From Octopus sinensis (Eukaryota), in contig NC_043008.1 in assembly GCF_006345805.1 (NCBI RefSeq), positions 71,486,001-71,550,000 of the forward strand: DNA of 64,000 nucleotides, written 5' to 3'. This document shows, one piece after another, positions 3,001 through 62,140 of this stretch; position 1 is the first letter of the stretch; each line of letters begins with the position of its first letter. A program made the position numbers and the translations under genes. Under the pieces are notes generated by a model. The model did not search any database, had not been told where the DNA came from, and worked only from the letters and a program-made list of their open reading frames with translations.

Positions 3001-3311
3001 CTTCCAAACACAATAGGAGTTATGCGTCTGTGCGCATACTATTACTCGCACTCTCTCTTCCTCCCTCTTTTTCCATTCGTCCCCCCTCTCTTTCTTTGTC
3101 ATACGCTCAGACATAATTTAAAGTAAATCTATCACAATTATAGAATTCTCTATTTTGTGATAATCATCTTCATGAAACTTGTTCAGCATCATAAATTATG
3201 AACTATATAAATGGAATTCATTATTATTAAACAATTGCAGCGTGGAAGGTGTTTATAAGCCATTTAAGAAACACACAAAACCGTTAGATTCACTTTAACA
3301 TATAAATTTAA

Positions 3312-3362
3312 TTTGTCAAAATATTTTCGTCGGTTTGGGACCGCGACCTGTTCACTGACAAA
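3312..3362 (-). ncRNA. Second copy of G3-C8 hammerhead (opposite arm)
   Basis: Reverse complement of 3419-3469 with one helix II mismatch. Confidence 0.75.
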
Positions 3363-3418
3363 GCTTCGTGCTGCATGAAGTTTTGTCAGTGAAGCTTTAT
3401 CGAGAAGCAGCACGAAGC

Positions 3419-3469
3419 TTTGTCAGTGAACAGGTCGCGGTCCCAAAGCGACGAAAATATTTTGACAAA
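3419..3469 (+). ncRNA. Type I hammerhead ribozyme, G3-C8 core variant
   Basis: TTTGTCA-GTGAACA-G-GTCGC(ggtcccaaa)GCGAC-GAAA-ATAT-TT-TGACAAA: 7 bp helix I, 5 bp helix II, palindromic AATATT helix III, UUU triplet. Confidence 0.8.
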
Positions 3470-3649
3470 TTAAATTCATATGTTGAAGTGAATCTAACGG
3501 GTTTGCGTTTTTTTTAAATGGCTTATAAACACCTTCCACGCTGCAATTGTTTTCGTTCCAGCACACGATCTCAGATCAAGTCTCTCGCTATGCAAGTACA
3601 TCTCCGTAATTATTATCAAAATGTTATGCTAAATAAGTTGTTCTTGAAT

Positions 3650-4761: not shown

Positions 4762-5409
4762 ATATTGTTATATTTCGGAATGGTCATATTGCCAGTTTAC
4801 CATAAAAACACACGCACTATATATTTGAGTTATTTTGCTTCAGTGATATTATTTTTATTTTAATCTTAATCTTCTTTCGGCCAGAGTTTCTTTCGTCACA
4901 CTCCTGTGACCGCATCAGTGTCCTTTGTTTTTCTTTTTCTTTCTTATTGTTTGTGTCTCTCCTTACTAACCGTCAGCCATTTTGTATTTCTATTGTATGT
5001 CTTCATTTGCGCATGCTTATATCTCTATGTGCGTCTATGTTTATTTAGTGTGTGTGGGGGGATCCCTGTAATATTTGTATCTTCTGTTTATATACATTCA
5101 TGTAATTTGTATTTTGTTTTTGTTGACACAAACAAATAAGAAAGAAGAAAACAATGGACCACTGATGCGGTCACAGGAGTGTGACGAAGAACTCTCTGCT
5201 GCTCTGCCGAAATAAGATTAAGATTAAAGTAAAAATAAATATCACTGAAGCAAAATAACGCCAAATATATAGTGGCGTGTGTTGTTATTGCTAAACGCAA
5301 ATATGACCATTCCGAATATAAACAATATCTGTTTCAACACAACGACGGCTTCACATAAAAATCTTGCACAACAAATATTTAAATATATATATATGTATAT
5401 ATATATATA

Positions 5410-5990: not shown

Positions 5991-6934
5991 ATGTGTGTGT
6001 GACATGACAGTAGTATGCTAAATGGTCAGCTGCGCTGGCCCACAGTTGGTGGTAGCAGTCGCTGTTTAATTGATGAAAATATTTCTTTTGAATGTTTTTT
6101 TAATGAAAATTGCGTAGGTGTTATTCTAAACAGCATTAGTGATAAAGTTAGGAAGGAGAAGGAAGGAGACGAGGAAAAAGAAGAGGAAAGAGAAGGGAGA
6201 ATAGGAAGGAACGTAGGTAGTGGGAAAGTAGTAAGGTGTTAAATGTTTAAATGACTTAAAATTGGCACGTTTTGGATTATAGCAGTGATTGGGACTGTAT
6301 TGGTTTTACTGTCTTTTTTCCTGTCCTGTTTTTGTTACGACTTTTACCCCATCGCAAAAAATCCCAAATTTTATTTCATTTGCTTTGCGGGAGGAACTGT
6401 TTCAAGAAGTCGTGTCTTGTCCATACGTTCGAACGCGGAGTAGCCGAAACAGGGACAACTGAAGAAGGGGAATATTCCTTGTGTTGTATGTCTTGGACTC
6501 TGTTTGTTCGTTGTTTGAAAAAAAAGTTTGTTTCCATGTTTTTGTTTTTATGTTTTCGTTTCTCATTGTGTTCAATGTTTTGTTGGTGTCCTGTACCCAT
6601 ATATGCATATATATATACATATAGATGTAGGTATGTACATATGTGTATATATGCATATGTTTATATATTATTTTGTTATTATGTATGTATATATGTATAA
6701 ATGTATAATAACTCCATAACGTGCGTTTAGAGCTAACATACCCTTTTGGCTACCACATTACATAATACAGCAGGATATCTTCTTATGCTGTGTTCTGGAT
6801 CTCAGTTTTCATATAGGATTAATATAAGAAAAATATAACCTGAAAATAGAAAACACTAGGCATAATAACAAATCGCAACCGTTGTTTCTGCACCGGATAC
6901 CAGCTTTAAATTGTTGAGCTTATATTTAATATCA

Positions 6935-7438: not shown

Positions 7439-7708
7439 TTATATCATTATATAAGATCATTCTTTAGATTACCTATATACACAAATACTTTTCAGCAGTG
7501 TGCAGGTGCTTCCTCACGTGGAATGCAATCAAGCGCCGTCGGATTTCTTTGAGTTTCTTCAGCTGTACCCTGTCTATCAAAATCCACCAATCGGTTTATT
7601 AGATTCCGGGAAAATATATTGCTGTAGTGACACAAAAAAAAGAAAAAAAAGAACTAAATACGAAAGAAATATCACTATTGCAATACCAACAGCAATAACA
7701 TTGACATA

Positions 7709-7917
7709 TCTTTTCTACTGTAGGCACAAGACTCAGAAACTTTTTGGGGGGTCTAGTCAATGAGATCGATTCCACTACGCAACTGGTACTTAATCTATCA
7801 ACCCCGGAAGGATGAAAGGTAAAGTCGACCTCGGCGGAATTTGAACTCAAAACGTAAAGACAGATGAAATAATGCTAAGCAATTCGCCCGGCGTGCTAAC
7901 ATTTCTACCAGCCCGCC
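7709..7917 (-). mobile_element. tRNA-derived SINE family A (Deu/Nin-like central domain)
   Basis: Reverse complement of the 10123-10356 family; GTCGACTTT.CCTTTCATCCTT.CGGGGT.GATA core. Confidence 0.85.
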
Positions 7918-9748: not shown

Positions 9749-10122
9749 ATCTTATTTGAAAATAGTGTACATATAAACACAAGAGAAAACCACCCTTTAA
9801 CAGGTAATTTTTACATGGTAGAAGGAGCAGCCAAAACGGCCAAAACCACAATTTAATAGCAATTTTCGAAGTAAATGAAAAATGAAAGCTTTTACATTGT
9901 TCTCTTTTTGCGGTAATACCTAGGTTTCAGATTTCTTTAGCAAATAAGATTATCTGCCAGGCGAATTCTCATCAGTAACTGACCTCAATAACTAATTTAT
10001 GATTCAGAAACAAATAACATGTGTCCCATCATCATATGTTATAACGTTTCAAAATTCAGCCCGAAAGCGCAGTTTCAGTCGGCAGTAAATAGATAATGCC
10101 GAGCTCGGCATTATCTATTTAC

Positions 10123-10356
10123 GGCGGCGAGCTGGCAGAAACGTTAGCACGTCGGGCGAAATGCTTAGCGGTATTTCGGCTGCCGTTACGTTGTTAGTTC
10201 AAATTCCGCCGAGGTCGACTTTGCCTTTCATCATTTCGGGGTCGATAAATTAAGTACCAGTTACGCACTGGGGTCGATATAATCGACTTAATCCGTTTGT
10301 CTGTCCTTGTTTGTCCTCTCTGTGTTTAGCACCTTGTGGGTAGTAAAGAAATAGGT
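10123..10356 (+). mobile_element. SINE family A, full length, with 13 bp TSD
   Basis: GGCGGCGAGCTGGCAGAA head, GTTCAAATTCC B-box, Deu/Nin-like core; TSD ATTATCTATTTAC at 10110-10122 and 10357-10369. Confidence 0.9.
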
Positions 10357-11273
10357 ATTATCTATTTACTGATGGATTTGTTTAGAGTTGTTAAAAATTA
10401 CTTCATTTTTAGTGTAGTTTATATCTCCCCCTCACACTACATGATACTTTAAACTGAATGATCTAGATATTTTTATTTCATAACTTTCGTTCGAAACATA
10501 TTTCAAAAAATCTGGGCAAGGGGAAAACGAAATTTGTAGATTTCTTTTAATATTCCTATATATATGAAATTTTGGATTTAGAAATCTCTTATGTTGCATA
10601 CCTTGAGTAAAAAGTTACTCTACAGTGGTTAACACTGGATACTAGCAGACATGACACACGACTTCTAAGAGCGAACTTTAATGAAGGTAATTGATATGCG
10701 AAGGATATAACTGAATTAAGTAACAACTCTCCCTCTCTTACTAATTTTGGTAACGCAACTGTGGCCATACTGACGAAATAACTTCAATGATAAAGTCATA
10801 TGTTTGGATACTGGCAATTGGATTACTATTTATGTTATTCGCAATGCAAGGTTGATTTGCACCAGCGTTTGGGTACAGAATGTAAAAGTGGGTATCCACG
10901 TTATACAAAGTCTTCTATCAACATCACAATGACTGGCAAAATTTAACGTAACTTTAAAATTTTGTCAGATTCTCTGATGATTGAACCTATACACGGTGTA
11001 TGGGGGTCTGATATAGAAAGTGATGTGAATTTTATATCGATGGTGTTTGTAACCCAATATATAGTTATCAACTAGTTTCCTCCGCTGGAATTACATACAC
11101 ATAAACATACAGAGATATGAGGCACACACATACATGTATAAATACATACGTACATACATATAGTAATACATACATACGTACATACATATAGTAATACATA
11201 CATTCACACACACACACACACACACACACGCACGCACAGACACACACACAGACATATGTATATATATAGAGAG

Positions 11274-21162: not shown

Positions 21163-22125
21163 GCATTTTTTTCCAAATACGCCAGCTAAGCTAAGTTGAA
21201 CTGTCTAAAATCGTAAGACACCTGCTGTTTTTGTCCTGTTATTACTATTATTGTTTTTTGTATTTATATTCGTGTGGCATTGTCCGTTTTTCTGTCTTTG
21301 TTTCGTATACATTCGATCCTTTTTCCAAGAAATCTAATGCTCGTAGCTTAGTTTTTCCTTGGGGCTGGCCGGATCGGAGCGATCTCAAGATTAATCAGCC
21401 GAAATTGCGAGGATGATCCGGTTCTTGACTGAAGATTAGAGGCTTCGAATGACGCGTCCGTTGTTTGTGTCGTCTATTTAATATTTTTATATATATTTTT
21501 TATACATATATTATTGCGGCGTAACGTAATCTTGTTCTCTTATGTATGTAAGCATTCCACTACTGTACGACTTCTACACACACTTTTTCAATACTTCACT
21601 AGCCTCTGTCTTTCTCTTTTCTTGCCTCTGATTCTTTGGTCTCCTCTTTCCCCACTCTCTCACATTTCTCTGTCTTTCTCACTTTGCACCTCACTGATTC
21701 TGTCGCCAAGCCAATCCTTGGCACGCTCTCTTTCTTCTCCCCTCTTTAATTCCTTCTTTCTCTCTCTTCCCCCCTCCTTTTGTGCCTTTGTCCCTATTTT
21801 TCTCTCTCTCTTTGATTCCTTTGCCCCCTTTTTTCTTTCTCTTCTCCTCTCACGTGACCGCCGGTCAACTAGCCTTTCGGCTTCTGACCACCGCCACGAC
21901 AACATCGTTTTCTTCGTCTGCCGCAAATGCATTTTTTTCCAACTACGCCAGCTAAGCCAAGTTGAACCGTCTAAAGTCGTAAGACGCCCGCTGTTTTTGT
22001 CCTTTTATTACTATTATTTTTTCCAAGAAATCTAATGCTTGACTGAAGATTAGAGGCTTCGAATGACCCGTCCGTTTTTTGTGTCGTCTCTTTGAGTGTT
22101 TTGCGTCCTTGTCCCATTTTGTAGT
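21163..22125 (+). mobile_element. (TA)n-flanked partial tandem element (~766 bp period) with decayed HHR-like motifs, PLE pseudo-LTR-like
   Basis: 21163-21470 repeats with deletions at 21929-22090; GGCTG..CAGCCGAAA and GACTGAAGA..TTCGAA motifs; related copy at 27655-27950. Confidence 0.65.
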
Positions 22126-22286
22126 TATATATATATATTTTTTTTACATATATATATATATATCACAATCAAGGACGGCCATAATAGGCCATTCACCCAC
22201 TAGAAATAACAGCCAAAAGCTTCAACCGCAAAATAAACTTAATTCTGTAAACCAGGAGAAAATAAAAGAAAACATTTACCCTGAAA

Positions 22287-22389
22287 TTCCTTATACGATG
22301 CACCGTTTCGTCTACTGTTTAATGGCAAACTAACCTGATTAAATTAAATCAAGCCAATCTACCATAGCCCTTAGATTCATCAGTAGGAA
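22287..22389 (-). ncRNA. Type I hammerhead ribozyme (inverted copy)
   Basis: Reverse complement of 22974-23076 with small indels. Confidence 0.85.
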
Positions 22390-22973
22390 TAGCCAAATCG
22401 GAACAGATATTTTTCCGAGGCATTCACGTCCATGCCTCGCCATATCTGACCTAAATTTTCAAATCGTCGCACTCGCGCCAAATTTTCGGCAGCAAATAAA
22501 TATAAGCCGCCGATTCCATTACGGAACTAACCAGAAAATTCATAATTAATCAATATAGGGAGGCAAAAAAATTTTGTAGAATTCTTTTGCCCCCAAGCGG
22601 CAAAAAGCTTCAACCGCAAAATAACAAATATATTGTTATTTTGCGGTTGAAGCTTTTTGGCTGTTATTTCTAGTGGGTGAATGGCCTATTATGGCCGTTC
22701 CTTGATTGTGATATTGAACTTAAAAATGGTTTATGACTATTTAATTTTTTCCCACTAGGCGCTGGGGCAAAGAATTCTACAAAATTTTTTTTGCCTCCCT
22801 ATATTGATTAATTATGAATTTTCTTTTCTGGTTAGTTCCGTAATGGAATCGGCGGCTTATATTTTTTGCTGCCGATAATTTGGCGCGAGTGCGACGATTT
22901 GAAAATTTTAGGTCAGATATTGGCGAGGCATGGACGTGAATGCCTCGTGAAAATATCTGTTCCGATTTGGCTA

Positions 22974-23076
22974 TTCCTTACTGATGAATCTAGGGCCTAT
23001 GGTAGATTGGCTTGATTTAATTAATCAGGTTAGTTTGCCATTAAACAGTAGACGAAACGGTGCATCGTATAAGGAA
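22974..23076 (+). ncRNA. Type I hammerhead ribozyme with extended helix II
   Basis: TTCCTTA-CTGATGA-A-TCTA...TAGA-C-GAAA-CGGTGCATCG-TA-TAAGGAA; GUA triplet, predicted cleavage after 23069. Confidence 0.9.
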
Positions 23077-23365
23077 TTTCAGGGTAAATGTTTTTTTAAT
23101 TTTTCTCCTGTTTTACAGAATAATGTTATTTTGCGGTTGAAGCTTTTTGGCTGTTATTTCTAGGGGTGAATGGCCTATTATGGCCGTTCCTTGATTGTGA
23201 TATGAACTTAAAAATGGTTTATGACTATTTAATTTTTTCCCACTAGGCCGCTGGGGGCAAAAGAATTCTACAAAATTTTTTTGCCTCCCTATATTGATTA
23301 ATTATATATATATTATAATATATATATATATATATATATGTATATGTATATATGTGTATATGTAT

Positions 23366-23402
<37 letters not shown>

Positions 23403-23419
23403 ATATAAATACACACATA

Positions 23420-23600
23420 TATAACGTTGATTTTCGGCATGGTCATTATGCTTTTTTTTCTCAAATAAACACATGTACTATATATTTTTTCTTCACTCGT
23501 TTATTACTGTTCTTATTTTATTATTATAACTCATGTCCATTGTCCTGAAATCTTTCGTCAGTCATCTGTGACCTCTTCAGCGACACTTTTCGTTTTCCTG
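23420..23600 (-). mobile_element. Relative of the 4760-4957 element with a degenerate HHR at ~23541-23587
   Basis: TTTCGG.ATGGTCA..AAACAC..ACTATATATTT shared; CTGAAGA-G-GTCA..TGAC-GAAA on the minus strand. Confidence 0.6.
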
Positions 23601-31364: not shown

Positions 31365-31615
31365 ATAGAATGGTTGTATACTGTCAATCTAACAAGAACG
31401 TGACAGTAGGGGGTACACCACCGCTGTATAGCCCTAGGAAGCATCGAACGCCTCCTGATAGCTTTGACACATTTTTCCCTATATGTATATAAGGACACAG
31501 GGAAAAAATGTGTCAAAGCTATCAGGAGGCGTTCGATGCTTCCTAGGGCTATTCAGTGGTGGTGTACCCCCTACTGTCACGTTCTTGTTAGATTGACAGT
31601 ATACAACCATTCTAT
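31365..31615. repeat. Near-perfect inverted repeat (arms 31365-31480 / 31499-31615)
   Basis: ~116 bp arms with ~3 differences, 18 bp spacer, (TA)n flanks. Confidence 0.95.
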
Positions 31616-44062: not shown

Positions 44063-44832
44063 GGCAGCGAGCTGGCAGAAGCGTTAGCACGCCGGGCGAA
44101 ATGCGTAGCCGTATTTCGTCTGCCGTTACGTTCTGGTTCAAATTCCGCCGAGGTCGACTTTGCCTTTCATCCTTTCGGGGTCGATAAATTAAGTACCAGT
44201 TACGCACTGGAGTCGATATAATCGACTTAATCTGTTTCTCTGTCCTTGTTTGTCCCCTCTGTGTTTAGCCCCTTGTGGGTAGTAAAGAAATAGGTATTTC
44301 GTCTGCCGCTACGTTCTGAGTTCAAATTCTGCCGAGGTCAACTTTGCTTTTCATCCTTTCGGGGTCGATTAAATAAGTACCAGTTACGCACTGGAGTCGA
44401 TATAATCGACTTAATCCGTTTGTTTGTCCTTGCTCGTCCTCCCTGTGTTTAGCCCCTTGTGAGTAGTAAAGAAATAGGTATTTCGTCTTCTTTAAGTTCT
44501 GAGTTCAAATTCCGCCGACGTCGACTTTGCTTTCATCCTTTAGGGGTCGATAAACTAAATACCAGTTGCGTAATGGGGTTGATCTAATCGACTGGCACCT
44601 TCCCCAAAGATGTCGGTCCTTATGTCTAAAGCAGAAAAAAAAGAATATTTTTATTAATCATGGCGGCATTTCGTCTGCCTTTACGTTCTGGGTTCAAATG
44701 CCTCATGGGTCGACTTTGCCTTTCACCTTCCCGGGGTCGATAAATTAAATACCTATTACGCACTGGGGTCGATGTAATCGACTCATCCCTTTCACCCAAA
44801 TTTTAGGCCTTCTGCCTGTAGTGGAAAGAATT
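44063..44832 (+). mobile_element. Tandem array of four SINE family A units
   Basis: Units restart at GG(T/C)ATTTCGTCT at 44293, 44477 and 44665; only the first has the 5' head. Confidence 0.9.
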
Positions 44833-46619
44833 ATTTTCATTAATCATAACATAGCGTTTATTTTTATAAATATCCACCAAACCGATTTACTTCTTAAACA
44901 AGAAATTTGATTGCTAATTTTATATTTTGCTTCAGGGATTGATTTTTCATCGTATCTTTTAGGACATTTATATTCTCGTATTATTACTCTTATGTTAATT
45001 AAACAGTTAAAGAGTAGTTGTATGATAAGAAAAAGAAAAGATTTGTTAAAATCTGATGTCGCAAAAACTATCAACGCCAAATAGCATTGTAATACTGAAA
45101 TATGGTAAATCCTATTCGCTCATTGTTTCTTTGTGGTTCACTTGTTTTTATTGAACAATTAATTATTTTAACAATAAGAGAGGTTATTATTGGTTTGGTG
45201 ATCTGCAATTTCATTTTTAATAAAAGCATATTAATCTACCATACTCAATTTCAATTTTCTTTTTTTAATAGCAGAAATGTTAGAAATTTCTTTAAACGCA
45301 AAGAAAATGTAACTATGACTGTTTGGGGGATTGGTACTTGTGCGTAAAAAGCACACAGAGGGAAGAACTATTACGATATAATGAACGCATTAATGTTGCG
45401 GCTATACGCAACATAAACCAATAAAAGAAAAAAATAAGTTGTCACTAGTTGTAACTGAGGTGTATAGGGTAGCACCTACATTGCTAAAAATAAGAGTTAA
45501 AAACCCTTAGAACCCCAAGGAAGCATAGTTTCATACGCTGACAGGGGACATAATCGCTCCACAGTGAGCCAGCTTACTATACCATACTAAACTATGTATA
45601 TATACATATGTGTGTGTGTTATGTGTGTGTGTGTGTGTGTGTGTGCGTATATATGTATGTATTCATGTATGTATGTATTAATGTATGTATGTATGGGTAT
45701 ACACTTGCATATGGTGTTTGTGTGAGTCTGTGCGTACATATCTAAATATAAATAGCTGTAAATGTCAAAATTTAAGTATTCATATATTTCTGTTCGTATC
45801 GCTTCTTCGTTCCCACATTTCCTCGCCTCTGTAATTTCTCCTACCCCACGACGGGTTTTACTTTTCATACTCCCTCTAGAACTCCGTCGGCTCGGTCAAA
45901 ACATATCTAATAACGTAAACATTGGTGATGTCACATGCTTACTGATGTTATATGCTTCTTTTTTTGATACACTGAGTAGCTGCAGAATTTCATCCATGAA
46001 AAATCCCAGTAAGGCGTCGAGTGTTTAAAATCAATGAATAACTGCAAACCAGAAAGTATTAAGTATGACACATATTTAATATATGTTTTCCCTGAACAAA
46101 ACTCCGCAGCTAATAAGCGTATATACGAAACACATGCCTTAAGAATGTGACATTAGTTTACATTATTACAGTTGCTTGTAATTCAAACTTAATTTTGTTC
46201 TACTGTAGCATCACTTTTACTCATTACAATATAGATTTTACGCTATCTGCATATGTAATTCAGACAAAAGATTAGCATTCATTTCAAGGTGACTTCTATA
46301 TATATTGCCAATAAGCTGAATTACCAGCGAAATACCGATATCCACCATTCTTATTCACCCTCAGAACTATTCGCTATTCAGCGCTTTTTAATACTGAACT
46401 TCTTAAAGGTGTATTTCCGTGACAAATTGTCGCAACTACTAAGTATACATATTTTTTTGTATGTGTGTATCTGTAAGATTGTGGGTAGTTAGTATGTTTT
46501 GCACATCAGGGAGTACTCATTGGGGATGGTAGCACATGTGTATGAGTGATGTACCTGTATGTGAGTATGTATAACTGACTGTATGTGTTGAGTCCAAATG
46601 GCGTATTTCAGTACATATA

Positions 46620-48557: not shown

Positions 48558-48685
48558 AAAGAAACCGATAGAATAAGTACTAGGCTTACAAAGAATAAGT
48601 ACTGGGGTCGATTCGCTCGACTAAAGGCGGTGCTCCACCATGGCCGCTAACAAATGATTAAAACAAGTAAAAGAGTAAAAGAGAG
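48558..48685 (+). mobile_element. SINE family B tail
   Basis: GAAACCGATAGAATAAGTACTAGGC..AAGTAAAAGAGTAAAAGAG. Confidence 0.85.
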
Positions 48686-48993
48686 GGCTATATTCAAAAA
48701 TATACCTATACATATCAAAGTTGTTTTATATTCTATAATTTTCACAGACAATAAATACGATATTATTTGTTATTGCCTGAGATTTTGGTGTAATTTGAGA
48801 GGATAATACAAAAGTTATAGATGATTTAGTGATTTACTGAAAAAACCATGGCGGTCAAAATGATCAGAACGGTTGCTTTTACTCCGTGTTTTAGTATATT
48901 TAACCGGCGAACTCTAATGTTTTGAATTTGTTTACGTGGCGGTTCGTTTACTAAACATTAGTAAGAATATTTGCAGTGTACTTTGTTTATATA

Positions 48994-49872
48994 ATGCCAC
49001 TTACTCCGTTACCAATTCGTCAGTAGATTATTAAACTTCGAAGGAAGGATAATTTAAGTATTGGATCTATTGCACAGATTGTTAACAAGTCAAAAAGTGT
49101 TCTACACGGTATTCTTGAGGTCTACGATGATTGTGGTTCGTGTGAAGCAAGAAAGTTTACAGGTAGTCCAAGAAAAATGACCAAGAGAGAAGATCGTGCT
49201 ATGGTAAAGTTGGTTAAAAAGGACAGATTTAAAACTGCTGCTGCTGTTTCTCGGAAAATGAGCATTGTATTGAAGAAAACTTTATCTCGAAAAACTGTGT
49301 CTCGTCGTTTAGTTGAACATGATCTACAAGCAAGAGCACCTGCAGTGAAGCCACTGATCAGCTCCAAAAATAAAAAGTGTCGTCTTACCTTTGCAACCGA
49401 ACATGTGTTGTGGTCTCAAGAAAAATGGCAAACGGTGCATTTCAGTGATGAATCTAAGTTAATGTTATTTGGCTCAGATGGGAAAAGGTACGTTCGTAGA
49501 AAAGTAGGTGAAAAGTTGTCGCCTAAATGCCTTAAGACTAGTGTTAAATTCGGTGGAGGAAGTGTCATAGTTTGGGGAATGATATCTGGAGATGGTGTGG
49601 GCCCTTTGGTGCGATTACATGGAAAGGTAAATGCAGGAGTTTATAAACAACTTGTAAAAGATCATGTCTTTCCTGTGCTGAGAAATTCAACTAAGCGACC
49701 ACCCATATTCATGCAGGACAATGCCCCATGTCACAAGGCTAAGGTGGTCATGAACTTCCTCAAGGCTGAAAAGGTTATTCTTATGGATTGGCCTGCTCAA
49801 AGCCCAGATCTCAATCCTATTGAAAACGTATGGAATATTCTAGGAGAACGTTCGAAAGCGAGAAATCCTAAA
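48994..49872 (+). pseudogene. Tc1 DD34E transposase pseudogene
   Basis: In-frame ATG at 48994, premature TAG at codon 11, GSPR (GRPR-like), FSDESK, KFGGGSVIVWG, FMQDNAPCH, SPDLNPIE with exactly 34 residues between D and E; homology lost after ..ARNPK (3' truncated). Confidence 0.92.
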
Positions 49873-50121
49873 TACTTACATCTATATGCAAATGCTTGCA
49901 TTTATGCAGCCATACAATATGTAAACATTACAAGTATGTGGATGCAAACAGGAAGAATAAGACTCAAAATATGACTAAAGGCATATTTTCATTAATATTA
50001 ATCAGAAGCAACAGAATGATTCATGGTCCGAGAGTTTTGTGCGTTGGTAATTATTATAAAGTTTACTTCTGCTAAATATTGGTAAAAATCTATGTAAGCA
50101 TTTCTCTCTCTTTCTCTCTCT

Positions 50122-50188
<67 letters not shown>

Positions 50189-50212
50189 CAGGTATATTTT
50201 TGAATATAGCCC

Positions 50213-50385
50213 TCTCTTTTACTCTTTTACTTGTTTCAATCATTTGCCAGCGGCCATGGTGGAGCACTGCTTTTAGTCGAGCGAATCGATCCCAGTACTT
50301 ATTCTTTGTAAGCCTAGTACTTATTCTATCGGTTTCTTTTGCCGAACCGCTATGTTACGGATACATAAACACACCAGCATCGGAT
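50213..50385 (-). mobile_element. SINE family B tail
   Basis: Reverse complement of 48558-48685, extending further into the element. Confidence 0.85.
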
Positions 50386-54542: not shown

Positions 54543-55086
54543 TGGTCCCTCATAGCGTGTTGGTATCTACGCATAGTAGTACCCTCAATATAATATAAAT
54601 GAATATTTTCAAAGAGGAAGAATTTACGGATTTTTTTTCTCTTACGATGTTTTTCACGCTGACTACTGATAATTTCTTTTAAAGATTTTATCCTCAATTG
54701 TTAATTTATATTTTTCACCGGAATAGTTCAATACTGAATTTTTATTCCGACTAGGCAATTTGTTACCGAAATGCATTGCGAAAAAGCCCGCCATTTTCAT
54801 AGATATGTAAGGATAAACATTCGTACATGCTACGACGAATTCTACGGTTGGCTATCGAGTTTGTAATGTTATGTTTTTTCTTATATTTCTTGAGTCTGTT
54901 GCACTGACGAACATGAAATGCATAATCTGCATTAAATGCGAAATCACATGTGATATGTAACTGAATTCTTTTTTAAAATGATGTATTTTGAAGTTTTGCA
55001 TTCGGTAAAATTTTGTTTATTTTTAGTAGTTTTGCCCGCATTGGTCCCTCTTAGCGTGTTGGTATCTACGTATAGTAGTACCCTCA

Positions 55087-55095
<9 letters not shown>
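54541..55095 (+). mobile_element. Retrozyme-like element, 499 nt monomer + ~56 nt terminal redundancy
   Basis: 54541-54596 repeats at 55040-55095; single HHR; (TA)n on both sides. Confidence 0.88.
54898..54961 (+). ncRNA. Type I hammerhead ribozyme
   Basis: GTTGCA-CTGACGA-A-CAT...ATG-C-GAAA-TCACATGTGA-TA-TGTAAC; perfect palindrome ATCACATGTGAT; AUA triplet, predicted cleavage after 54955. Confidence 0.88.
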
Positions 55096-55119
<24 letters not shown>

Positions 55120-55396
55120 CAACAATTGAGGGTAAAATTAATTAATCAATTTCACCAAGTGTTCAGTATGTAAAAGGACCATTTAAGGCGAATTCAAAAT
55201 ATTACATTATATAATTAGGGCTTAGTAAAATAAATTACTTTGCCACATACTGAACATAATAGAAATAGCAGCCAAAAAAAAATTTTTTATCCATTTCTAC
55301 TACTTAAAGAAAATTTCTCTCAGATAATGTTTACTCAAGATAACTCACGAAGGTATGGAGGTAAATACAGAAAAATATCACAAGTACAAAGATCGT

Positions 55397-55457
55397 TTGA
55401 GAACGTCAACGTTTCTAGATTAGCCAAATAAAATCAGCATTTCTTTCGTCAGCTCAA
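55397..55457 (-). ncRNA. Type I hammerhead ribozyme (copy of 55774-55834)
   Basis: Exact reverse complement. Confidence 0.8.
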
Positions 55458-55773
55458 AATTTCTTAATTTGGATTTGGAAACACTAAAAAGAAAGAACTT
55501 TACCTCTCGGCGAACTTATCACCTCAGATGAACCAGCTCAAACTGCCAGTGCTAACAAATTCAAAATGCGCAAGCGTAAATTCCTGCACTCCTCTTCCAC
55601 CCACGTGGTCCATCTAGCAAACATTATATTTTAACCGCGAGGACCGAGGCAGTATGACAGAGAGAAATGAATTATAATATCAACAATTGAGGGTAAAATT
55701 AATTAATCAATTTCACCAAGTGTTCAGTATGTAAAAGGACCATTTAAGGCGAATTCAAAATATTACATTACTA

Positions 55774-55834
55774 TTGAGCTGACGAAAGAAATGCTGATTT
55801 TATTTGGCTAATCTAGAAACGTTGACGTTCTCAA
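55774..55834 (+). ncRNA. Type I hammerhead ribozyme
   Basis: TTGAG-CTGACGA-A-AGA...TCT-A-GAAA-CGTTGACG-TT-CTCAA; GUU triplet. Confidence 0.8.
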
Positions 55835-56949
55835 ACGATCTTTGTACTTGTGATATTTTTCTGTATTTACCTCCATACCTTCGTGAGTTATCTTGAGTAA
55901 ACATTATCTGAGAGAAATTTTCTTTAAGTAGTAGAAATGGATAAAAAATTTTTTTTTTGGCTGCTATTTCTATTAAGTTCAGTATGTGGCAAAGTAATTT
56001 ATTTTACTAAGCCCTAATTATATAATGTAATATTTTGAATTCGCCTTAAATGGTCCTTTTACATACTGAACACTTGGTGAAATTGATTAATTAATTTTAC
56101 CCTCAATTTTACCCACTGCTTTGTCACTTCATTCGAGAGTTGTGGGAGGCTATCGAGGTAGCCGATAAAGTCCATAAATCCTTGTGACTGACTACTTTCT
56201 CTGAAGAGTTGAGCAAAATGATGCTTGAAGCCGTGGATACTTGCTTTGAATCGTACAGTAAGCGTCCATCCTGATTCGTGAAAGACTGAATTGTGGCCTT
56301 CTTACCCTTAACCTCCCAAGCCCATTAAACTCATTGAATTTATTCTTGTTGTAACAGATTATTACTAACGTTGACAAAGCATCCTTCGAATAAATTGCAA
56401 GTTGGATGCATTTCTAATTGCCTCCTCAGTTTACTAACAAACTCCCCCTCCTCCTCCTCATTCTCCTCTAATCTATTTCTCTCTAAACACAATAACCACT
56501 GTATTTAATTGCCCTTGTTGTTGACTACTTCACCTGTCAAATGCCGCTTCACTAGGTCGCTAATTCAGTTTCCGCATTTATCTTTTCGTGTTGGGAAAGA
56601 TGCATTCCATTTCCAGTAACCGGATTCCTGTCTATGTGTCCTATCTGAAGTAATTACGCAGATTACAAGTTTGTGATTTGTGTAACCGGCCAGTTATAGA
56701 GATTTTAAAAAACTATATTTTCCAGCTAACTTAACTTATAATCAAAGCACGATTTGGAAAACCCATTTTTGTGTAAGTTGACATTTTCGAAAATTCCGTT
56801 GGGTACCTATTAAAATCTGGAAACGTCGGAACATGTTTTGCAGGGAAATGTATCGCCTTCTGTGTGTTAAACCTACACAATCCATCTTGCGTGCAAAACA
56901 ATATTCTACTCCCCTGGTACGAACCGTGGTGTGGTGGTGCTGATGAGAA

Positions 56950-58592
56950 AGGATCTGAAGTAGGGGGACCAAAGGGAAAATTTAGGTTCATAACTCTCTT
57001 GAGCGCAGCTTACAAGATTTTGGCCAAGGCGTTAGCCAACAGGATAGCGCGTGTCGTCAATAAACTGGCCGGTGTCGAGCAAACAAAGTTATCCTGAGTA
57101 AATCTATCAACGACAACCTCCATGTCAGCACGCGTTAAATCATAGACAACGTAGTGAAGGAACCAGTCATGGGTAGGGCCCTGATCATTTGGGATCAAAA
57201 GCTTTTGATAGAGTCTACCATCAATCCTTGAAAACTCTCCTCGTAGCACCTGGTTTCGATCGCGTTTTCAGAAGCTGGATCGCTGCAGTATCCATCGACA
57301 TCTTCTCGGTGGTCAAAGTCAATGGCCACCTATCGGAAACGTTTATTATCGTACGTTCGGCTCATCAAAGATGCCCACTCTAGCCTCGTCTCTATGTACT
57401 GGCCCTCGAGCCACCACTAAGCAAGTTTGATGTTTCGAAAGGTGTATCACGTGAGTTAGGATGCGGAAATCTCGTGTCGGCTTATGTGGATGACATCACC
57501 CTAATAGTGTCGGACATCTCGTAAATCGAGGTGATCAACACTACCTTAAAGAGTACGAAGCGATTACAGGAGCAACGATTCACCCGGAGCATTTAGTGGA
57601 TATGGAGCTCGGCATCAGGAAAGGCAGTTTCATGTCGGTTAAAATGCTTGGAGTCTGCTTTGTTCCGCACCTCCAGGTGGACTAGAACTGATGTCAAGTG
57701 ACGAGAAGGGAATTTGCTCTTCGGTTTTCTATGTAAAGAACGTGTTCAACTTACAGCCATCTGGCTGTTGGATAGTGATATCGGTGGCAGTTCCTCATTG
57801 GAATTCGACAGGGGAGCAGTGGTGGGCAACAGCGATTACTTCCTCGGGAAAACTTTCGGGCCGTGGCCTATTGATAATCTCCAGATATTCTTGTTCTAGT
57901 AATGCTATCGGGAGTTCTGCCTGTTCAAGACAGGCTCTACAGGAACCAAAATATTGTCAGACGGATGTGTGTGAGAGGTGCGCAGGGCGATGAAACCGTC
58001 TAGTCCCTGGGTATTAATGACACGTAAATCTTTGCGGATTAGCTGCTGATATGTGTAGGACGGATCAGGTTGTCAGCCGAATCCATCGTGAAGATCGCCA
58101 TGCTACCTTGCTTTAGACTGGAAGGGAAGACAGTTTTCTTCTACCTACTGGCTATGCGAAAGAGCTAGTATGATGCACGAAGTTGAAAGAACCAAAGAGA
58201 GATATTTGCTTCGGATAAGCCCTCATCGACTTTTCCAAGTTCTATTTGTAAAGGGAATTGAGGGTGGAGAGGGAAATATTGCCTCCCTAGTATTTTTGTT
58301 GAAAGGTGAGTGAATATGGCGCGAATGGCCCGTGTAAATGTGTCTACTCTGAACGTATACTTCTAAGCTTGAGGAAAGAGCCATCTGTTGAGATCGGGTA
58401 ATCAGGATGTGTGAGGTTTTTACGATGTCTCGGATTCGAAGATCCCCCATTTGAGGATTTTTATTTTTGGATTGTGTTAAATATTTTTGCTTTATTTTTA
58501 TTAAAAAAGTTTTGTGTTAAACCCGACGTGTCATTTGTATCATATCGTCCCTTTTTGTCTTGTGTTCGGCCCTTCTGGACAATAAAGGTAAG
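56950..58592 (+). mobile_element. Tx1/L1-like LINE relic (RT through zf-RVT and 3' UTR)
   Basis: FRFITLLSAAYKILAKALANRI, SKAFDRVYH, HQRCPL*P..ALEP, AYVDDI, CERC..DETV; multiple stops. Confidence 0.88.
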
Positions 58593-61152: not shown

Positions 61153-61972
61153 GGTGGATGCATGCTGTGTATAGTCCAGAATGAGAATTTACGTATGTGA
61201 GGGTTATTTGAATATGTTTTGGAAATTAAACAACAAACGTAACGGAGGATTTAAATAAAGCACTCAGACACACGTAATAAAATGTAGTGAACGAACATCA
61301 AACTAAATTGACCTTTAAACTCTATAAATGAATATTTTTCATTTTTATTTTTGTTTTCGCTAGTGAACTTTGGTGTACATTTTGTTTTTAAAATATCACA
61401 ACCAAATATAGCTATTCATGTCTCTGTGTGCATATATTTCCTGCTAAATTAAGCTTTAGTTCTGGTAAAATAACAAGGTTGAATATATTTGACATATGCG
61501 ATATATCTCAAAATTTATTGTTTTCAATCGGTCTCGTACAATTTTTATACTCACACTTGCTATTCAGGGTTTGATGAAACCAAATATAGCACCACGAACT
61601 TCGTTAAACGTATTAATTCTCTAAATTTGGTATGTTACTGTTCCCTATATATATCTGTCTCGTATCTGCAGACCCATCAGCTGTCGCTGTTATTCACTGA
61701 CAGTTGAATGGAATAAAAATATGAAATTCATGTACAATGGCGTAATACGCCGTCAATTTCGAAGACTGAACCGGCAGTGTAAGATTATAAGCGCAAGTCT
61801 CAAACTACTACGCCAAGCGCCTTCACCAATAACTTTAATGAAGGTCAAATATATTTCAGGATACAGTTAGAATATCGATGAAATGAAAGGAGTATCTCAG
61901 TGTTTGTGTTGATATGACTATTTTGAAAATTTATTCTCTCTACTGTACTACTTCTTTAGCTAATAGTAAACA

Positions 61973-62140
61973 TTCTTTTCTACTCTAGGCAAAATACCCA
62001 AAATTTTAGGGGAGGGGGTCAGTCGTTTAGATCGACCTCAGTACGCAACTGGTACTTAATTTATCGAAACCTAAAGGATGAAAGGCAAAGTCGACCTCAG
62101 CGGAATTTGAACACAGAACGTAAAGACAGACGAAATACCG
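61973..62140 (-). mobile_element. SINE family A (headless unit)
   Basis: GGATGAAAGGCAAAGTCGACCTC.GCGGAATTTGAA. Confidence 0.85.

Follow-up and report, generated by a model that had tools for sequence, protein, structure and literature searches.

How did a non-coding repeat of 490 nt come to lie more than once on one strand and again, head to head, on the other, in what is probably a single insertion into (TA)n DNA? The insertion is found in a microsatellite-rich window, by which we mean the whole 64-kb stretch of DNA analyzed here. In a self-comparison of the window, 22630-22815 was repeated at 23120-23305 with 95.8% identity over 189 columns, which sets the period at 490 nt and pairs 22634 with 23124, the re-entry point given in the original prediction. 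The plus arm consists of a first copy of 186 nt, 5'-truncated and equivalent to a pseudo-LTR (22630-22815, plus strand), followed by one complete 490-nt unit (22816-23305, plus strand) whose 3' end overlaps (TA)n. The minus arm, an inverted copy at 22160-22627, runs from 22627 to 22601, skips about 100 nt and continues from 22600 to 22160. Its part at 22160-22593 aligns with 23203-22764 in reverse complement, with 93.7% identity over 445 columns (blastn E 0.0), and crosses the unit junction at 23120 uninterrupted, as had been proposed. Between the arms, 22601-22627 and 22633-22659 are inverted repeats that match perfectly over 27 bp and enclose five loop bases, ATATA (22628-22632), forming the hairpin that had been described; this palindrome (22601-22659) constitutes the head-to-head junction and is the likely fold-back point. 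The minus arm amounts to about 0.95 unit and the plus arm to 1.38 units, and the former is nested entirely inside the span of the latter. The longest stop-free frame of the unit is 70 aa, and self-comparison detected no further copy of the family within the 64-kb window.

The insertion sits between a (TA)n target tract on the left (22126-22163) and a (TA)n/(CA)n target tract on the right (23303-23423), within which a target-site duplication is unreadable. Its flanks are two different sequences and not an inverted pair, indicating that the palindrome is not an artefact of a read folded at an adapter. Each arm overlaps (TA)n at its 3' end by 4-5 letters (TTAT/ATAT for the plus arm, GATAT/ATAT for the minus arm), and the two 3' ends, at 23305 and at the place matching 23203, are 102 nt apart. 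Read on the minus strand from 22627 to 22601, the left arm of the hairpin is identical to the first 27 nt of the unit, indicating that both arms share one start near 22630, which in unit terms is 51 nt beyond the predicted ribozyme cut. The claim that the minus copy begins at a different position in the monomer therefore had to be abandoned; moreover, the arms would not count as independent permutations should the minus arm have arisen by fold-back. After its first 27 nt, the minus arm jumps to the position matching about 23249, and the piece that it skips is the whole domain closed by CTAGTGGG/CCCACTAG. This join would be compatible with a GGC overlap, given the loss of one G, a type of error common here. 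Comparison of the minus with the plus arm shows 9 substitutions and 14 indels, and comparison of the direct repeats within the plus arm shows 1 substitution and 6 indels; the indels fall mostly in homopolymer runs and look like assembly errors.

A type I hammerhead was predicted in the plus arm at 22973-23077 (plus strand) by a descriptor scan, a constrained fold and family variation. It has a helix I of 8 bp, the core CTGATGA at 22981-22987, a helix II formed by a 66-nt extended domain with A.C as its first pair, GAAA at 23054, and a helix III of 3 bp with the palindromic loop TGCA; the GTA triplet places the predicted cut after 23069. All elements of the type I core (CUGANGA, GAAA, NUH and three helices, with helix I open) are present. 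The ends of the insertion do not coincide with this cut, in agreement with the original prediction, which had likewise placed the cut at 23069 and had named the hairpin CAGATAT..CGAGGCA / TGCCTCG..ATATCTG at 22914-22959 (plus strand). Folding reproduced this hairpin, and family variation is concentrated in its loop (22931-22939). The corresponding hammerhead of the minus arm (22286-22390, minus strand; core from 22383 to 22377; predicted cut between 22294 and 22293) escaped the strict scan, and its helix I is one T shorter than that of the plus copy. With one hammerhead per arm, the locus alone would release no unit-length RNA. The scan yielded three hits in the window, namely the motif at 22973-23077, a degenerate hammerhead at 9975 and a weak hit at 6459; 20 shuffled windows gave none. 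Rfam gave no match at gathering scores across the 64-kb window, and no hammerhead was among its 62 weak matches in 22100-23400; the Rfam models are probably defeated by the long helix II.

The predicted helices appear to be maintained by compensatory change, as supported by one diverged contig (record 29), whose variants were assigned via its depth of 17.4 and registered by hand on the core. Relative to the locus, helices I and II each have two pairs altered on both sides, the loop III palindrome TGCA is replaced by TATA in a double change that preserves the palindrome, and two one-sided changes create Watson-Crick pairs; none of the 16 positions checked is broken. Since these changes come from a single contig registered by hand, the covariation is taken as support and carries no statistic. 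In another family contig, the cut triplet GTA is replaced by GTC, which is also valid. We considered the A.C first pair of helix II as the mark of a dead copy and rejected it: family members have C, T or A there, and similar mismatches of the first helix II pair occur in the other hammerheads of the window. For the hammerhead region, the free minimum (-38.1 kcal/mol) differs from the active, constrained fold (-35.2 kcal/mol), with a gap of 2.9 kcal/mol. The linear unit folds at -150.2 kcal/mol (z -5.95), a value matched by none of 100 shuffles. Circular folding of the monomer, a check suggested with the original prediction, gave -144.5 kcal/mol for the hammerhead strand, as against -110.4 +/- 5.3 kcal/mol in 50 shuffles and -95.1 kcal/mol for the opposite strand.

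Part of the stretch was found in 20 sequencing runs from 10 studies, none of them listed as RNA; of 24 runs listed, four were aligned. The family sample comprises the runs with labels A, B and C and a fourth run, excluding small shares under labels D and E; run X9, guessed to be RNA, was counted as family sequence and not as expression, as contigs carry no information on where an RNA ends, on its strand or on its amount. The runs of labels A, B and C, which are three species labels, contained 7271, 3660 and 983 family contigs, respectively, mostly 90-99% alike to the locus copy and with coverage of all 29 bins. Records 29 and 30, both from the fourth run, bridge the predicted cut site and the 23120 junction, indicating that the head-to-tail join is a property of the family and is not peculiar to the locus. 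Family contigs cross the unit junction but are too short for two consecutive hammerheads, and the locus, with 1.38 units, is likewise without two complete hammerhead-bearing units. The palindromic junction and the 100-nt skip were absent among the joints listed for the family contigs, so that both are documented by this assembly alone, and no (TA)n tail was seen among 24 of the 203 loose-end rows. The family data also list no site at which molecule ends accumulate, a feature that contigs do not display. At 23164, near the jump point of the minus arm, 53, 20 and 8 contigs from three runs have differing sequence upstream of the shared motif described below, and may represent a subfamily or a partner element. 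A splice acceptor or back-splice at 23118 was considered and rejected, as A23117 is G in most of the depth of X1, X5 and X9 (not X2). Pattern scans for additional loci gave no hits in metagenome contigs, viral contigs or prokaryote genomes. In the literature we found no description of this 490-nt family, which Repbase, Dfam or preprint supplements may already contain; the word 'ribozyme' occurs 0 times in the available part of the Octopus vulgaris repeat annotation (PMC13282606).

Several properties of the family are those of animal non-LTR retrozymes: the unit is non-coding, measures a few hundred bases and repeats head to tail, its GC content is under 50%, it has a single type I hammerhead and pairs strongly with itself, and its copies are numerous. 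The mismatch at the base of helix II also has a counterpart in the axolotl retrozyme HHR_Amex2. The unit of 490 nt is longer than the 170-400 nt circles and 150-450 bp repeats given in the available part of PMC7229834, and falls within the 51-972 bp range given in that of bioRxiv 10.64898/2026.07.22.740005. As a further difference from these retrozymes, several of which are known as circular RNAs, helix II of the unit has a long extension. With one hammerhead per arm, the locus also departs from the two-unit rule for active copies in the same preprint. Inverted copies, which are present here, are not described in the accessible portion of the preprint, and the word 'Inverted' occurs 0 times in that of PMC7229834.

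Four unrelated hammerhead-like insertions in the window share parts of this build, namely partial tandems, inverted copies, a 5' palindrome and microsatellite ends. The element at 55111-56108 is an unrelated young hammerhead element with arms 99.4% alike; it comprises a minus-strand partial tandem with a period of 562 and one 3' end in (TA)n, and an inverted truncated copy that begins in ribozyme helix I, the 3' ends being 13 nt apart. Decayed LINE-like reverse transcriptase remnants adjoin it at 56100-58000. Two (TA)n tracts enclose a 499-nt partial tandem at 54543-55105, which has a direct repeat of 64 nt (92%) and a hammerhead at 54904-54955; its 3' end, ACCCTCAAT, matches the 3' end of the neighbouring element. 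A head-to-head pair at 3229-3552 has a minimal hammerhead-like motif in each member, with palindromic helix III AATATT and the core GTGAACA; this G3-C8 swap is described as partly functional in PMC11167929. On the minus strand, an element running from about 10120 to 9750 starts with a perfect 19-bp palindrome, has a degenerate hammerhead at 9975 and an 18-nt motif at 9836-9819, and ends near (GATA)n. Inverted-arm elements are also found beside (TA)n at 31365-31615 and 4762-5328, in which the scans detected no hammerhead. The distance from cut to 3' end is 90-291 nt in the four hammerhead families measured.

The 18-nt motif, TTTTGGCTGYTATTTCTA, is common to three mutually unrelated hammerhead families of the window. 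At the locus it lies at 23145-23162 and 22655-22672 on the plus strand and at 22201-22218 on the minus strand. It occurs six times in the window, against 0.21 expected, each time downstream of a hammerhead on its own strand; two of the families served to define the motif, which leaves the hit at 9836 as the sole independent one. In whole-unit alignments between families 1, 2 and 3, the scores of 37, 45 and 42 stayed under those of the best shuffles (49, 51 and 59), indicating that the families share a short motif only. Elsewhere, the window contains a Tc1-like transposon at 48558-50339, whose terminal inverted repeats measure 157 bp and whose transposase frame (49027-49974) is 315 aa long, and a 184-bp dispersed repeat (44063-44850, 10123-10359, 7704-7917 and 61970-62140, with a 2.6-copy tandem at 44111-44593), which we take to resemble a tRNA-derived SINE. 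Together with the density of microsatellites in this animal DNA, the SINE-like repeat suggests an octopus host; a 20-mer of the SINE had no match in the literature.

We consider it likely that the locus represents one insertion of an abundant non-coding 490-nt hammerhead repeat, probably a non-autonomous Penelope-like element of the animal non-LTR retrozyme kind, which a Penelope-type reverse transcriptase/endonuclease supplied in trans would have copied into (TA)n. Published descriptions of Penelope-like elements, cited here from the available portions of each source, contain the same components. PMC3846280 describes elements with direct and adjacent inverted pLTRs, palindromes of 18 and 38 bp at the 5' end and microhomology deletions, and attributes head-to-head junctions to an antisense template that primes itself. 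In PMC8557442, such elements are reported to form partial tandems and to have inverted copies truncated at the 5' end, tails of 30-40 bp and (TA)n targets. Elements of the Hydra clade, one of which is from Octopus bimaculoides, have their hammerheads close to the 3' end in the same source; Hydra hammerheads are often without a Watson-Crick first pair in helix II. A purified Penelope enzyme cleaves both strands at ATT, initiates internally and acts mainly on uncut RNA (PMC11167929). Recently active Penelope families are known in Octopus vulgaris (PMC13282606), and animal retrozymes have been argued to be non-autonomous Penelope derivatives (bioRxiv 10.64898/2026.07.22.740005).

Similar to Penelope/Poseidon, Neptune and Hydra elements (PMC3846280, PMC8557442), the locus has a partial tandem in the form of a pseudo-LTR with an adjacent inverted 5' copy, and a palindrome where the inverted copy joins. 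It also has deletions at microhomology, 3' ends that are unequal and both in (TA)n targets, and a hammerhead shortly upstream of the 3' end. Unlike these elements, it has no RT/GIY-YIG ORF, the entire element being the 490-nt non-coding unit, and is thus not an autonomous Penelope-like element. Its 3' ends are 102 nt apart, an offset larger than the published 30-40 bp tail, which counts against our reading. Also comparable are non-autonomous Chlamys elements such as MRC1 (PMC8557442), which are ORF-less and Penelope-dependent, with pseudo-LTRs and head-to-tail insertions; these are green algal, most Chlamys are without a canonical hammerhead, and those of the MRC1 type resemble their autonomous partner at the 3' end. 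Of the 74 frames of at least 95 aa within the window, 54 were compared with Pfam, and neither a Penelope RT nor a GIY-YIG domain was detected in them. The RT-like remnant at 56777-57097 was considered as a partner and rejected, as its match is weak (E 0.008) and resembles a decayed LINE. Six short motifs from elements of the window had no hits in the available part of the PMC8557442 supplement, a weak comparison in which sequence lines are wrapped or cut, and no sequence link of the 490-nt unit to a named Penelope family was found.

The geometry of the locus, its fold and the size of the family are observed; the enzyme, the template and the order of events we infer as follows. A Penelope-type enzyme acting in trans would nick the AT-rich (TA)n DNA, and reverse transcription would start at an internal point of the RNA, which lies 236 nt downstream of the ribozyme cut, aided by the TTAT/ATAT overlap. 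It would then copy 676 nt with a single crossing of the cut site; given that one crossing, the template would be an uncut multimer, a circle, or a monomer used via an end-to-end jump. The end of the cDNA would fold back across the 5-nt loop and extend itself, skipping the 100-nt folded domain at a short GGC-like overlap. This second copy would halt 102 nt before the first end and join the other (TA)n side by the GATAT/ATAT overlap. In the original prediction, reverse transcription around a circular or multimeric RNA with fold-back priming had been invoked. The copying of more than one unit and the fold-back are retained here; a circular RNA is one of several possible templates, since a single pass along uncut head-to-tail RNA, or a jump from one template end to another, yields identical DNA.

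A circular template, produced by hammerhead cleavage and ligation of the unit and followed by the reverse transcriptase for 1.38 turns, is a possible source that we entertain tentatively. The cut site is crossed without a scar, the unit folds well in circular form, and the 189 columns aligned between the direct repeats contain 1 substitution, compared with family contigs that are mostly 90-99% alike; however, a young homogeneous tandem source would give equal identity. Circular RNAs are known for the retrozymes of coral, mussel and axolotl (PMC7229834), and the route has already been proposed for Penelope-like elements, for which circular templates were suggested to account for more-than-unit reverse transcription (PMC4209133). 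By contrast, the purified Anolis enzyme mainly used uncut RNA, with no reads ending at the cut in the data described (PMC11167929), and only one of nine frog retrozyme dimers was cleaved in vitro (bioRxiv 10.64898/2026.07.22.740005). In the second family of the window (55111-56108), the 3' ends 13 nt apart point to preferred rather than scattered starts.

We then considered whether the arms could come from two RNA templates, one per target strand, copied by a dimeric enzyme and joined head to head as cDNAs with no fold-back. For the Anolis enzyme, a predicted dimer, cleavage and extension take place on both strands (PMC11167929), and both 3' ends have a few-letter overlap with (TA)n. The arms disagree at 23111, and a 5-nt indel between them is polymorphic in the family as well (18% of depth in X1), differences that count against our reading in that a two-template origin also explains them. 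They carry the same letter, however, at 18 of the 19 variable places tested (out of 37 listed), and have in common rare letters such as G23037, found in 0-4% of family depth, as well as T22937 (10-34%). Moreover, independent 5' truncations would be unlikely to coincide at one base with a perfect 27-bp palindrome, and the inverted arm is nested in the long arm both here and at 55111-56108. Taken together, the shared start, the nested short arm and the shared letters favor a single, self-copied fold-back cDNA, and make two templates possible but improbable.

Still less probable is an origin at the DNA level, in which a pre-existing, satellite-like copy of 1.38 units was inverted and duplicated by fold-back at a break or fork without any RNA, and a later 100-nt deletion stabilized the palindrome. 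Fold-back inverted duplications and deletions at their center are general genome processes. Satellite-style local amplification of retrozymes has also been discussed (bioRxiv 10.64898/2026.07.22.740005). At this locus, however, the duplicated part consists of element sequence only and includes no flank; inverted arms occur in two other hammerhead-like families within the 64 kb and a 5' palindrome in a third, and this layout is already known to mark insertions of Penelope-like elements. The inverted arms, the TA flanks and the Tc1-like element elsewhere in the window might point to a TA-targeting MITE or foldback DNA transposon whose terminal inverted repeats are long. Such an origin is very improbable and largely refuted, as the arm ends are 102 nt out of register and so do not form in-register terminal inverted repeats, the unit is repeated head to tail, and the fold is strand-specific with a hammerhead preserved by compensatory change.

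The locus is real and well explained by known Penelope biology, as an insertion of the retrozyme or non-autonomous Penelope kind. Its layout is published, as are the proposals of a circular template and of self-priming, and the family itself was not found described; the case is therefore useful to the specialist rather than surprising. A more speculative and rather doubtful extension is that several unrelated, very abundant, viroid-sized hammerhead RNAs circularize and are rewritten into DNA by a Penelope enzyme that rounds the circle, recognizing them via the shared 18-nt signal downstream of the ribozyme. We found no demonstration of the step of circular-RNA retrotransposition, proposed in 2014, in the literature examined; if the extension is true, more-than-unit fold-back insertions would be a genome-wide record of it. 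In the available parts of that literature, the link between retrozymes and Penelope has so far been based on shared ribozymes, co-occurrence and phylogeny, and an ORF-less hammerhead repeat with the full footprint of a Penelope insertion adds mechanistic support to it. With thousands of matching contigs from three species, the starts of reverse transcription, the fold-back points and the sharing of alleles between arms could be mapped, and the family thus offers a test system for distinguishing circular from multimeric templates and fold-back from twin priming.
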